From a phage, in the sequence record PZ674595.1: DNA of 64,000 nucleotides; one strand, written 5' to 3'. Below, one piece after another: positions 8,389 to 14,300 of the stretch. The position numbers are program-made. Numbering within the stretch: the first letter of the stretch is position 1; every line of letters begins with the position of its first letter.

Positions 8389-11300
8389 TAATAGCGGAAA
8401 CGGAATGGGGAAACTCATTCCGTTTTTGTTTATCGCCTTAGACGGCAAAAGTGCTGTCGCCCACCTGCGCTTGCGCATACCAGGCCATAAGCTCCGTGGT
8501 TCCTGGTTCTCCTTCCGCTGGAGCCCAGTGCGCATAGTCATCGGCAGCCACGGGTTGATAGCCACCGTGTTTTACTTCAAAAATTATGCCACCGGTATCC
8601 AGCGACAGCACGGCATGCCAGGTTCCTGCGGCCATCTCCAGCACCGTACAGGTTTCCCCCAATATCGCCCGATGGGTGACGGTACCCCGATCGTCAAAAT
8701 TCAGCACCACGAAACGACCCCTTAATGGCAACAGTAGCTCGAAGGTGTGAGGGTGTCGGTGCGGGCGCACGTAGGTCCCAGGTACAAGTGCAAACGAAGA
8801 AGTCTATCTGGCAGTAGCCTAATAAGCCAAACACCAGCGAGGTCAGTTTCCAGCCTCGTTACCGAAATGGGACACACTGAGCGAGTGTGATTGCAGAACG
8901 CAGGAGGGAACATTCATGTTCCCTCCGATGAAGTAACAGAATGGGCGGTTGGTATATTTTCAACTCCATATGACTCCCGAATTCTTAGCCACTGACCGCC
9001 CATCCTGTTACGTCATTTTGTTCAATTATGTCGTTTATACTGGGTTAAAAAGCGGCGACGTAGCCCGGCTGGTATGGTTAGCCAGCACACAACGTTGAGG
9101 CCATTACATTTTTATCAATTCTAAGGTTCTATTCACAGAGATACCGGCGAGCATTGATATGTAACATGTTGGGCAAACATTCAATCGGAGTAGTGGCCTC
9201 AACGTTGTGAAGACGGGATTGTTGTGTAGGTTTAACCACTGTTGCCATTGGTACCTGTTTTCACAACAAATGATTCCATACATCACATTGTATAAATTAC
9301 AAAGTAGGTGCTGTCCTCAGAAACATCATCTACTTAAAGATTTTGCCTTCTACTATTGAGCGAAGTCGAAAGCGTCTGGCACTAACGAAAAGTGCAAGTA
9401 GCGGTGCGTTTCCTGGCAGAAACTAAACCGTCGCGATTGGCACTGTTGAGTAATAAATACTGGCAGTGCTGAATTGATGGTGTAGCTCAGCGGTAGAGCA
9501 GTTGGCTGTTAACCAACTGGTCGGTGGTTCGAATCCACCCACCATCGCCAATTTAGGGGAGTTAGTCCGTAGGGGCAGCGGGGTAGACTGTAAATCTACT
9601 GTCATTGCGACTCGGGTGGTTCGACTCCATCACTCCCCACCAAATTGCCGGTTTAGCTCAGTTGGTAGAGCGCCTGCCTTGTAAGCAGGATGTCAGCGGT
9701 TCGATCCCGTTAACCGGCACCAACACAACAGGTAAGAGCATTGGGCGAATCGGCGATACTGACCACAAGCCCGTAAATCGATAGAGTCAGACCAGTGCTC
9801 TTACCGTTGTGAGGAAGTGCAGCTCTTTGAAGCAACCAGAAGATAAGCATCTGGCTTCACAACACAACGATAAGATCATTACGGTTAATCGTCGTTCATG
9901 TGCACAATGACTGGTCGAAAGGTAGTGATCTTACCGTTGTGATGAATGCACAGGCTGATGTGCCGCAACTACAGTAGTGCGCGCTTTGCGGGGCTTGCTA
10001 CAACCCTGTGTCGGAGTTCAGCACCGACCATCACAATAGCTGGAGAGTAGGGAGCATGGTGCTCAAGCGGTCTTGAAATCCGTCCCATTGTGCAAACGAT
10101 GATGGTTCGATTCCATTACTCTCCGCCAGACACAGCGTTGAGCGGTTTGGCCTTTTAATCAACCAGATTAAGACTCCGCTAACATAAACCAGACCGCTCA
10201 ACGCTGTGATAGACAATTACGGCAGACGTTCTTAACCATAGCTTGCTAACATCCTAGCAACACTTTTTTCAGCGCAAAATTCAAAGGGGCTTCGGCCCCT
10301 TTTTTGTTGAACAGTGCAATTTACTTTGCATAGTCGCCCAATTTTAATATTTCGCGCTTATATTCATTAACCATGCTACTGGATTCAGTATAAATTCGAT
10401 TTAAAAGATTATCGTTATCTTTATTTTCATTTATCTTAATTAGTGCTAATTTATATTCATAGTCATCAAATGCCACAATTAAATGGTGGCCTGGGATTAT
10501 ATCTTCGTCACTCTTAAAGTATATATCTTCAAGTATGTAATCTAGTTGATTAGATTTTCTTTTCTCGATGTAATCTTCAGCCATAGCTATTACATCATTC
10601 CTGTCATTTAACCTGTTTTTTTCGGAAGGCACATCTTCGTAATGTTGCACGATTGAACAACCAATAAGGCGTGGGATGTAAACATCAAAATGAGTAACTC
10701 TATCATTCGCGGTTTTAAGTAGTTCCTCAAAGTAGTTTCTTACATGTAAAGGCAACTTCTCAAAGTAATCATTAATTATAGGAGAACAAGGAGTTTTATA
10801 ATTCATAAGAACCGACGGTACGAGCTTTGGGTGTCGAAACATCCAGTCCCTTTTAACGTCCGATGGAACATAATAACTTTTAATGATATTATCAAAATAA
10901 TTTATCATTCGAGATTTGAATATTTTGTTGAATCTAAGGTTTATGAATGTATCCAGATAAGGCATATTTGAATAAGCATCATCAAAAAATATTTCATCAT
11001 TGAAAAAATCATATTTATTCAATAAACAACACAGTTTTTCCGAATTAATATGTTCACAATAATCGATTTTTAATCCAAAGATAGCAATGATCAACTTCAT
11101 CTGAGGTGGGATTTTAAAAATTAATTGTGACACATACGCTCTTTTTTCCTTGAGACATTCCCCATCAATATAAAATGAACCATCCACATACTCAAATATA
11201 TTAATAATATGCTTCACATACTGTATTACCTCATGCTGTCTTACCAATGGGTAATATAGTCTATGTAACTCATCGCTGTTTAAATTAATTTTGTGTTTAT

Positions 11301-14300
11301 CGATAATTTGTTTTGCAAGAAGACATAACTCATCATGTTGATTTAATAAGGAATCAAACCATTGTTTAAATGCACTCTTTCGCATTTCGAACAATGATTC
11401 AGTTGTTAATTGAAGGGCTGAAAAAGCTGCTTTTGCACTTTTTCTCGCTTCGTAGGCATTCCATGCTGTTGCTATAAAAGCAAATGCTGTAGCCAATGTT
11501 CCAACAGTTTGACCATTTAAAACAACCCAATCCCAAAAAATGACGGTGAGCAGTAGTATAATAATGAAAATTAAAAAAGGCATGTATGTATTTCACTCTA
11601 CTAACTATAAAATATTAGGCTAATGTTAACCAAACAATGCCTTAATTAATAGATTGATCGAGGCTTTAATAGCTTTATAATGCAGATTGCAAAGATAAGT
11701 ATGCACACACCTATCTTCTTTGTAAGTAAAGTTGCATATCAATTCTATGAGGTAACAATGACAATCACTATCTACGGACGAGATAACTGCTCATACTGCA
11801 AACGTGCGGTCGAGCTGGCGAAGCAACTAAAGGGACATGGCTACGGTGATTATGAGTACATCGACATCACTACTGCCGGTATCGACAAGGAAAAACTTAG
11901 TGAAATTGTTGGTAAACCGGTAGAGACTATCCCCCAAGTACTGATCGATGGTCAACCGATTGGCGGATACACAGAACTGGCTGCATACGTCAGCACCCTC
12001 TGATTTTAACGGCTCACAGGAGCCGTTTTTTATTCCCACCAAACTCACTCCTGTTTCCCTTAAAATTCAAAAAACAACGTCTAAATGATTCCATACCTAC
12101 TATGTATGGAATCATTGCTGAAAATGAGTTACTTTTACTCTTGATCCTATAAGAATCTATGCCTAATATACTGTTTACTTATACAGTGCATCGGCGTAAC
12201 TCGGTGATTGTCATATGAAAAATAGCTTTGACAGAGCACGCGCTGCGGAGAACACCTCAAAAGAGGCGATAGAGTATCTCGAAAGAGCATCTCAAATGCA
12301 GGCCGTTATGATCTCCCAGGTCAGCAATGACATGAGATTCTCGGACGCATTCATGTTATTCACTCGCTTATCTCTGCTGATAACCAGACGTCGGCCAGAG
12401 ATCGCTGTTCATTGTATTTTGATACATGTTTTGCCGCACATTGCCGATGTAAAAGTAAGTGACATTAATAGGTTCATGGTGAACCAACTGGTCAACCCAC
12501 TAATACTGGATGGCAAAATTGTTATGGGCCGCCGCGTTTTCTCTCTGATGAAGCAGTTCCTTAGCTGGTGCGCCTTCCAGGGGATGATAGACGTGTCACC
12601 GTTAAACGATATGTCACTTAACAAAGTTGCCGGTGGCGCAAAGCCCACACCTCGCGAGCGGAAGCTGACCGACGCAGAGGTATGGGTGTTCTGGAATATA
12701 TGGGACTACTTCAATGTGTGTGCTGGTACAAAATGGGCGGCCAGGCTATGTCTTGTATCCGCAAGACGACCTGACGAAGTACTGCGGGCTAAAAAAAGTG
12801 AGTTCAATCTTAAGCGTGGGGTTTGGAATCAAGGCAAGAGGAACAAATCTGCCCGTGAGCATTCTCTGCCTTTAAGCTCATTAATGCGCACTTGTATTGA
12901 AGAGTTGTTCGAATATGGTAAAGACAGCCAGTGGCTCGTGCCTTCGAATAAAAAAATCGGGAAAGACCTTCCTATGTCTAAAGTGGCAATAGCCCAGGCA
13001 TTACGTCGTATTCTGGAACGACCAGAACTGATGGAGCTTGAGCCATTTACACCCCGAGATTTGCGCCGTACTGCGCGTAGTTACTTCCCAGCATTAGGCA
13101 TAAGCCAGGAGGTATCACGTAAAATCATGAACCACAGTCTTGAGGGGATAGATCGGGTCTACGACCGGCACGATTATATGGACGAGATGCGAGACGCCTT
13201 AGAAAGTTTCTCGACGTACATCGCATCAATCGTAGAGCAACCGGATTTAGACGAAATTGACCACAAATTTAAGGGAGATCGTCTATCAACAGAGCTTATT
13301 CGTGTAAATTTTTCATAGAGACTTTATGGCCTCAACAACCTTTTGTGATGCGCCTTTCTCTTTACCGAATCGCTCGTTATATGCAGCAAGAACCTGTTTT
13401 TCGTCCTCGTTAAGAGGAGCAGTGCCTTCTTTGTATAAAAATGCTGCGAGTTCGGGTTGGCGTTCTTCCAGCACCATCATCATAAGACGACTTGGCTCAA
13501 TACCCAGTGCCAGCGCCAGCGGACGAACCTTATCGATAGGCAAAGGAATTTTGCCGCTTTTAATTAAAGAAAGGTTGTTGGCGTTTTTATACCCAATTGT
13601 TTTGGCTATCTGGGCCTGGCTCATAGGTGAGGATTCAATCAACCCTGCGATAAAAGCAGCGTAGCGACTTTCTATAAATTCAATCTTGTTATCAGACATG
13701 GTTACAACCTTTGCGCGTTCAATTCTCTCTGGTAAGTGCTTACCGATATTACATCAAAGGTTAGGGTTGTAAAGCTATTATCATTTTTTTCGATAGGCAC
13801 TTAAAAGACCGGTTAAAGGCCATTGCACGGAGAAAAATTAGCCCAAAACAGGTAAGAAAATCAACTTGCATATGATATGAATGTATTCAGTATTGATACA
13901 AATTTTAGTAGTATTCCTTACCATAATATAAGTTAGAATGGATTGATTGAATGAACACCACTATTTCCAGCCTAATCGCTCTTGAGATCGGACACGTACA
14001 GAAATTAGCTGATGAGTGTGTAGCTGACATCCTCACCGATCTACCGAATGAGCAGATTCAGGTTGGTGTGAATGACACAACTGGATTTATATTCGAACTT
14101 AACAACAAACGCTTCACGCTTCTCAATACCGGCTCCGGGTCTTTAGCCGTCAGAATCTGTTAACCCCTCTTCTCCCTGCGCGAATGGCTTAGTTCCCTGT
14201 TCGCGCAGTGCTACATTAAACACACTAGTAAATAATTTGTTTTCATAACAAAGGATTAGCCATGTCTAAAAAACGTTCCATCAAAGAGGTTCAGGACTTC

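Follow-up and report, generated by a model that had tools for sequence, protein, structure and literature searches.

The 64,000-nucleotide stretch of DNA under analysis (PZ674595.1; hereafter the window) is an SSU5/pHCM2-like E. coli phage-plasmid carrying ISEcp1-blaCTX-M-55, and between its tRNA cluster and its tyrosine recombinase it harbours a minus-strand gene of 420 codons whose product, WP_001718056.1, is annotated as a 'hypothetical protein'. This 420-amino-acid (420-aa) protein (the query) is probably a single-gene abortive-infection (Abi) or phage-exclusion factor of the AbiC/P superfamily that would shield the host from competing phages. It is not recognized as a member of any curated family and appears to be a hitherto unannotated distant relative of AbiC and AbiP, which is what is new here. 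An anti-phage role had been guessed in the initial annotation, and two lines of evidence now point the same way, towards the abortive-infection type: remote homology, which places the query in a sister clade of the PF16872/AbiC-AbiP proteins, and genomic position, as sister plasmids carry AbiGi systems and an HNH-type candidate in the same slot.

The sole direct match of the query was PHROG 18168, a family of unknown function (E=2e-217). By tblastn against 72,556 plasmids, a homologue was found in 134 records, mostly SSU5-like elements of Escherichia, Klebsiella and Enterobacter (30–40% identity) plus plasmids of Pantoea; one weak match (23.6% identity) is annotated as a 'putative phage abortive infection protein' and hits PF16872 at E=1.2e-11. 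BLASTP aligned residues 28–331 of the query with this protein, WP_161569778.1 of Pantoea agglomerans (E=6e-18). Searched exhaustively with phmmer, 1.84 billion cluster representatives yielded only 42 relatives, thus the family is small, and a word-indexed profile search added nothing beyond them; one of the phmmer links leads directly from the query to the PF16872-positive protein P0040 (E=3.3e-7). Among 32 aligned full-length members, 19 match PF16872 at E≤0.1 (best 1.2e-11), while four match the PADLOC model of AbiC (PDLC02343; best 1.3e-6) and four that of AbiP (PDLC02351; best 1.1e-4; P0035 at 2e-4), neither of which is matched by the query itself. Likewise, the gathering score of PF16872 (22 bits) is not reached by the query, and relatives at 32–36% identity to it score between 15 and 22 bits, with P0014 (33% identical) at exactly 22.0. 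The family was then split into the query clade (A3; 18 sequences) and the PF16872-positive clade (A4; 15 sequences), and hhalign aligned the two over 397 columns with a probability of 100% (E=2.1e-51). Full-length homology of the query to PF16872-positive proteins can therefore be regarded as secure on profile comparison, even though the query lies below all database thresholds. The query group is clearly a sister clade of the putAbiC proteins, in which their polar signature has been lost and a C-terminal extension of variable sequence acquired.

Several points weigh against a defence function of this type. The query has no match in Pfam (even at E≤10), NCBIfam or PADLOC, in agreement with the original statement that it contains no assignable motif. 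The polar residues that are invariant in canonical PF16872 proteins (H, S-P-Y-M-R, Y-H, S, R-S, N-D, N, Y-Q and H) are mostly replaced in the query clade by hydrophobic or other polar residues, and from the canonical putAbiC signature the query retains only Q82/H83, Y122, F193/F194 and Y262. This replacement explains the missing Pfam match; it may also signal functional divergence of the query clade, in which an activity depending on the canonical residues may be absent. Furthermore, the tie between the Pfam and PADLOC models and the studied lactococcal AbiC and AbiP rests on model names and provenance, and there are differences even between AbiC and AbiP (PMC13064643). Finally, a promoter scan of positions 11584–11746, immediately upstream of the gene, found no consensus sigma-70 site on the minus strand, weak candidates being seen by eye only, so that expression of the gene in the prophage state is an assumption. 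A full-text literature search for 'putAbiC' gave no paper.

Comparison across relatives revealed that the gene is accessory, as first suggested: some relatives lack it, no homology links it to any housekeeping function of phages, and unrelated genes take its place between flanks that are 99% identical. It resides on an exchangeable cassette, with flank identity of 97–99.7% up to position 10306 (just past a terminator hairpin) and again from 11746/11747 (just before grxA). At ≥90% nucleotide identity it was found in 37 plasmid records, as compared with 206 that carry an integrase of at least 90% identity; among 5,426 complete E. coli genomes, 40 carry the gene, never on the chromosome, and 218 an integrase at ≥95% identity. 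The content of the slot between tRNA-Ser and grxA was determined for an even sample of 20 relatives (rows H101–H120 of the plasmid-record search). The query family occupies it in five, as four alleles at 100/97, 55, 37 and 30% aa identity to the query, all in backbones with 97–99% identical flanks. In the others it is occupied by: (i) AbiGi with a 403-aa partner, an AbiGi/AbiGii-like pair (four relatives); (ii) a Gp49-family gene only (five); (iii) a 302-aa minus-strand gene of unknown function (two); (iv) a lipoprotein-like 184-aa gene with a 262-aa or a truncated 183-aa HNH-like protein (two); (v) the same 184-aa/HNH-like pair with phoH and Gp49 (one); and (vi) a DUF6645/SASA protein (one). 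The Gp49-family gene, which also fills the slot of phage Cyrano, is co-oriented with grxA and overlaps it in relatives that lack the cassette. The AbiGi occupant is well recognized (PADLOC, 5.5e-47; Pfam, 4e-25). Since the flanks are conserved while the content is variable and includes recognized defence systems, the tRNA-Ser–grxA slot is a defence hotspot. AbiG (AbiGi/AbiGii) and other cargo of the slot in sister phage-plasmids (for example AnCo1, pYLPM7a and pEC16-2) resemble the query gene in lying on the minus strand immediately upstream of grxA and in their presence/absence behaviour; AbiG has no sequence relationship to the query, however, and consists of two genes rather than one.

Some of the other occupants were characterized as well. 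The 302-aa protein (WP_272955159.1; L019:2463-3371 and L020:2463-3371) has no Pfam or PADLOC match and no likeness to the putAbiC-like family, and is a candidate for another unannotated defence gene. The 184-aa gene encodes a signal peptide with an LTGC lipobox and often stands beside the 262-aa protein (L025:1933-3307; L009:1772-2326; L029:679-2062), the N terminus of which matches PADLOC PDC-M68A, CBASS-type endonuclease effectors and SduA; it also co-occurs with a 431-aa putAbiC-like allele. In pCP027369 (L030:1880-3793), the slot together with grxA is apparently replaced by a single 637-aa protein with DUF1737, SASA (sialate O-acetylesterase-like) and DUF6645 regions, which is suggestive of a tail-spike or of an enzyme that modifies receptors rather than of a defence gene.

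The ratio of nonsynonymous to synonymous substitution rates (dN/dS) between the window allele and those of pG749_2 and E. albertii is 0.29–0.34, against 0.01–0.04 for the adjacent recombinase. At ~0.3, roughly tenfold the figure for the integrase next to it, the ratio fits a gene engaged in conflict with phages. Constraint is strongest in the first 100 codons (0.11) and weakest in codons 201–310 (0.57). The 420-aa reading frame is intact in the alleles examined, and low GC content relative to the surroundings is common to the other alleles. By these measures the gene is under selection, functional and fast-evolving.

These data bear on the alternative that survives best, namely that the gene encodes an accessory membrane protein without anti-phage role (in envelope physiology, plasmid-prophage maintenance or lysis timing), or a degenerate AbiC-like relic. 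In its favour, the canonical polar signature is lost, no direct match was found in defence databases, and the same plastic region also holds cargo unrelated to defence (phoH, a colicin-E1-type immunity gene and the SASA/DUF6645 protein). However, dN/dS of 0.3 and intact frames argue against a relic, and strongly diverged alleles kept in one slot of near-identical backbones, where bona fide Abi genes also occur, are typical of conflict with parasites. The alternative is considered unlikely.

Regarding protein anatomy, the strongly hydrophobic start described at first was recovered (residues 2–22; Kyte-Doolittle means up to 2.8). A second, highly conserved and moderately hydrophobic helix spans approximately residues 26–44 and is a possible second transmembrane (TM) helix, TM2, forming a hairpin with the first. 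It lies in the most conserved segment of the protein (residues 25–60; 45–69% identity to homologues), in which A35, A38, A43, S49 and A56 are near-invariant and the basic stretch reads EARKSAKAA. The region equivalent to the putAbiC domain is of intermediate conservation, and its Y122, F193 and F194, together with Y262, are invariant across the family. In the C-terminal half, identity to family members drops to 5–28%, and alignment with the allele of pRHB31-C19_2 fails beyond residue 311; this half is a candidate specificity or sensor region. An AlphaFold2 (AF2) model built from the 32-sequence family alignment is mostly helical, with a predicted local distance difference test score (pLDDT) of 83.1 and a predicted template-modelling score (pTM) of 0.71, whereas AlphaFold on the single sequence was of no use (pLDDT 38). 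The model consists of a helix at residues 2–22, a very long helix at 24–96, a helical domain to ~306 and, at the C terminus, long helices together with three short strands. When it was compared with PDB and BFVD by Foldseek, there was no match at E<0.2, and a profile search of PDB sequences found no relative. The N-terminal TM helix and the second helix, followed by a helical soluble domain, reproduce the architecture of AbiC/P proteins (two TM helices in AbiC, one in AbiP; PMC13064643). By the positive-inside rule, the sequence would form a hairpin in the membrane and leave most of the protein on the cytoplasmic side.

AbiC was first described in 1992 and AbiP in 2004, and to our knowledge neither has a solved structure. 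Like the query, L. lactis AbiC (pTN20) and AbiP (pIL2614) are each encoded by a single AT-rich gene on a mobile element, start with one or more TM helices followed by a largely helical domain without an assignable fold, and lack a recognizable enzymatic motif. Relatives of the query match the PADLOC models of AbiC and AbiP as well as putAbiC, the query itself being below the threshold of all three. The query differs in its Gram-negative host, its phage-plasmid carrier and its considerably greater length, at 420 aa versus PADLOC profiles of 306 (AbiC) and 223 (AbiP) positions and a 228-aa ecto-domain given in a review (PMC13064643). Compared with these, the query also carries an additional C-terminal half, which evolves fast and includes a small alpha/beta element. 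In the same 2026 review, AbiC and AbiP are grouped as 'AbiC/P': AbiC reduces the amount of major capsid protein made by the phage, whereas AbiP binds RNA and single-stranded DNA, depends on its membrane anchor and interferes with replication as well as with the switch from early to late transcription, and no function was assignable to either from predicted structures (PMC13064643). Moreover, AbiP is toxic upon co-expression of a phage major tail protein (PMC12184496). The putAbiC proteins, such as WP_161569778.1 of Pantoea agglomerans, share with the query the N-terminal membrane segment, ATAWxAxEARxSAKAA, LLEQH, Y122, the FF motif and Y262; both are plasmid-borne and adjoin defence-like genes.

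The following course of action is proposed. The gene would be transcribed from its own promoter during plasmid-prophage residence. The N-terminal helix, probably with the second helix as a hairpin, would anchor the protein in the inner membrane, with the K/R-rich juxtamembrane stretch and the remainder facing the cytoplasm. The conserved N-terminal module (TM2, the juxtamembrane helix and the putAbiC-like helical domain) would serve as effector, and the fast-evolving C-terminal half may recognize a component of the infecting phage, by analogy with AbiP, which requires both its membrane anchor and its nucleic-acid-binding domain and has a phage major tail protein as trigger. Once triggered, the protein would block phage development through nucleic-acid binding or membrane perturbation, so that the phage-plasmid and the clonal host population are protected from competing phages. 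A narrower version, which we offer tentatively as a rather doubtful one, holds that the SSU5-type clade is a mechanistically distinct offshoot of AbiC/P, a phage-triggered Abi system that disrupts or depolarizes the membrane, in which the canonical putAbiC polar signature would have been given up, an almost invariant membrane hairpin and juxtamembrane helix would be kept as effector, and the hypervariable C-terminal half would set which phages are sensed. If true, the four 30–55% diverged alleles in one slot would represent a specificity series and a tractable E. coli model for AbiC/AbiP.

A membrane anchor would also suit a block at an earlier step. Many prophage superinfection-exclusion (Sie) proteins are small or medium inner-membrane proteins, and the inner-membrane exclusion proteins SieA of prophage P22 and Imm of phage T4 act at DNA entry. 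The query could accordingly be a protein of this kind, blocking DNA entry or an early envelope step, possibly including that of SSU5-like elements, without cell death. It resembles SieA and Imm as the product of an accessory gene that is membrane-anchored and proposed to protect from other phages; the membrane-proximal segment is the most conserved part of its family, no catalytic residues are conserved, and the gene stands alone, in opposite orientation and with its own regulatory region, on a temperate element. Yet no homology to SieA or Imm was detected, and the detectable relatives are all named after Abi systems that act after entry (on the capsid in AbiC, on the replication/transcription switch in AbiP). 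Furthermore, the predicted topology would leave most of the protein in the cytoplasm instead of on the periplasmic face, where entry is usually blocked. Exclusion at entry comes second among the alternatives and is considered quite unlikely.

A housekeeping function on the phage-plasmid (lysis, morphogenesis or an accessory role in replication) is highly improbable. The element does have phage structural and replication genes, and the PHROG match is a strong one, but only about 18% of close relatives have the gene, unrelated genes take its place, and tblastn found no homologue among 50,697 deposited phage genomes, including SSU5-like Cyrano. The source of PHROG 18168 is presumably a set of prophage or plasmid-prophage entries and not the sequenced virions. 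Homologues also occur on non-phage elements: outside SSU5, members of the family lie on conjugative and mobilizable plasmids and adjoin RES, AAA_15/AAA_21, DUF4145 and HEPN_RiboL-PSP genes. In addition, the PF16872-positive protein P0033 (L012:8001-9317) is encoded on a P1-like phage-plasmid (with RepL, DarA, DdrB, LydB and tail fibre genes), directly beside ddrB; the superfamily thus recurs as cargo in two unrelated phage-plasmid lineages.

The least probable reading, an HEPN-type RNase toxin acting through RDWMFRH (residues 245–251), was suggested by the R-x5-H pattern and by the many Abi proteins that are HEPN RNases, but was rejected because the pattern, which the initial annotation had already deemed too weak for such a claim, is lineage-specific and conserved in 0 of 31 homologues, with neither R nor H kept even in the closest (55%), and HEPN matches were found neither in Pfam nor among fold matches. 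The similarly named 'Abi_C' domain (PF14355; AbiJ and S. aureus SadR), which comprises HEPN RNases with an R-phi-x3-5-H motif (PMC13590631), was considered as kin of AbiC/putAbiC and also discarded: it shares with the query a name and the theme of abortive infection, but belongs to a different family, and the query has no conserved RNase motif.

The open reading frame (ORF) call matched the coordinates and length of the gene given previously, and with 1,263 nucleotides of open frame in DNA of 31% GC and homologues traced down to 25% identity, it is a real gene and not a chance ORF. Its reported AT-richness was borne out, with 31.4% GC (28% at third codon positions) versus a window mean of 45.6%; merely 0.16% of equal-sized segments are as low, every one of them in ISEcp1 or in this gene. 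No other ORF of at least 150 aa is found on the minus strand from ~4.3 to 22 kb, so the gene is indeed the sole long one on that strand nearby. The placement between tRNA cluster and recombinase was likewise reproduced, with grxA intervening on the recombinase side. A bidirectional terminator, said earlier to insulate the gene, was recovered in part. The hairpin, 18 nucleotides past the stop codon, is equally stable on either strand (~−17.5 kcal mol−1), but the terminator scan scored it on the plus strand only, as the U-tract is interrupted on the minus strand (UUUGAAUUUUG). It belongs to the conserved backbone flank outside the cassette and is kept in relatives without the gene; the cassette gene likely uses it in reverse as its own terminator. 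On the opposite side, the predicted layout is such that the cassette-specific 5′ region must hold the promoter of the gene. No second ORF of ≥50 aa, such as an antitoxin or partner, was found in the cassette. Coordinates of the gene, its parts and its surroundings are listed in Table 1.

Table 1. Features of the tRNA-Ser–grxA slot, the 420-aa gene and adjoining genes, by position in the window.
Feature	Position	Strand	Basis and remarks
tRNA-Ser (UGA)	10042..10128	+	ARAGORN; closes the tRNA cluster (Asn, Tyr, Thr at 9476-9722) and marks the slot on its left
GC-rich hairpin (AAAGGGGC-TTCG-GCCCCTTT)	10283..10302	both	Terminator of the backbone, downstream of the tRNA cluster; bounds the slot on the left
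Exchangeable cassette, 1,440 bp	10307..11746		blastn of window 9301-13400 against loci L006-L009
Coding sequence, 420 aa	10321..11583	-	ATG start; WP_001718056.1; putative divergent AbiC/AbiP-superfamily (putAbiC-like) protein, membrane-anchored
C-terminal half, helical with small alpha/beta part (codons 201-420)	10324..10983	-	Fast-evolving; includes the non-conserved RDWMFRH
Region equivalent to the PF16872 putAbiC domain (codons ~105-198)	10990..11271	-	PF16872 hits of homologues map to the aligned region; hhalign
Most conserved segment, GTxATAxAFxATAWxAxEARxSAKAA (codons 25-60)	11404..11511	-	Second, moderately hydrophobic helix, then basic juxtamembrane stretch
N-terminal transmembrane helix, strongly hydrophobic (PFLIFIIILLLTVIFWDWVVL; codons 2-22)	11518..11580	-	Kyte-Doolittle 19-residue means 2.3-2.8; AF2 helix 2-22
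Cassette-specific 5′ region	11584..11746	-	Upstream of the 420-aa gene; weak Shine-Dalgarno (GAGTGA); overlaps divergent grxA promoter-like site (11654-11681, +)
grxA, glutaredoxin	11758..12003	+	Backbone gene; right edge of the slot
Tyrosine recombinase/integrase	12215-13318		Beyond grxA
Helix-turn-helix regulator, 128 aa	13313-13699	-

The window was identified as an SSU5/pHCM2-like phage-plasmid because of its gene content (DNA ligase, the tRNA cluster, GrxA, the tyrosine recombinase, CobT/CobS-like proteins and DnaE) and the literature on such elements. Around the 420-aa gene, the sequence matches E. coli plasmid pCTX (NZ_CP047004.1; 112 kb, IncFIB, non-mobilizable) at 100% identity, as it does several sister plasmids, and parts of it are 94–98% identical to Escherichia phage Cyrano, CMS-2020a and similar 'phages'. 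ISEcp1 (6001–7263), with blaCTX-M-55, has inserted immediately 5′ of the tRNA cluster; the insertion (6001–8391, with remnant sequence to ~9300) separates a small backbone gene from the cluster, and the ISEcp1 transposase is, by length, also a 420-aa protein and likewise very AT-rich. In a preprint on SSU5 phage-plasmids, bla(TEM) is described on Tn3-like transposons inserted near tRNA loci. The tRNA cluster itself varies among close relatives, with Asn, Tyr, Thr and Ser in the window (9476–10128) and Asn, Thr and Ser packed together in Cyrano (L001:2178-2425).

A second variable slot lies between grxA and the recombinase (12004–12214) and is empty in the window. In other elements the slot is filled by a 184-aa minus-strand gene (Cyrano and pE16EC0562-7), a 307-aa minus-strand gene (pYLPM7a), a 202-aa gene with a YafO-family toxin (pEC16-2), or a colicin-E1-type immunity gene with a 205-aa gene (a Klebsiella relative); the loci are L001:3425-3979, L023:2803-3726, L026:2799-3827 and L004:2087-3548, and the occupants tested have no Pfam or PADLOC match. 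E. albertii p3RM15116 and its sisters (L031; ~62 kb, approximately half of a full SSU5-like element) keep the region and carry the 420-aa gene at 86% aa identity; these plasmids may be deletion derivatives that no longer form virions.

Specialists would expect hotspots of temperate elements to hold defence cargo, so the finding comes as less of a surprise; what is noteworthy is an allele-rich, E. coli-resident clade of AbiC/AbiP relatives that is missed by current defence annotation and rides on a phage-plasmid carrying an extended-spectrum beta-lactamase (ESBL). As Pfam thresholds, NCBIfam and PADLOC all miss the clade, and a DefenseFinder survey of SSU5 phage-plasmids does not include AbiC among the systems it names, the defence repertoires of clinically relevant ESBL-carrying phage-plasmids are probably under-counted. 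The tRNA-Ser–grxA slot could be mined for more anti-phage genes of unknown type, for example among its 302-aa and 184-aa occupants. Moreover, anti-phage cargo on a blaCTX-M-55 phage-plasmid could influence phage therapy as well as how well the resistance element persists. For the AbiC/AbiP family, an E. coli clade with a natural allelic series on inducible, curable and engineerable elements would make these proteins easier to study.

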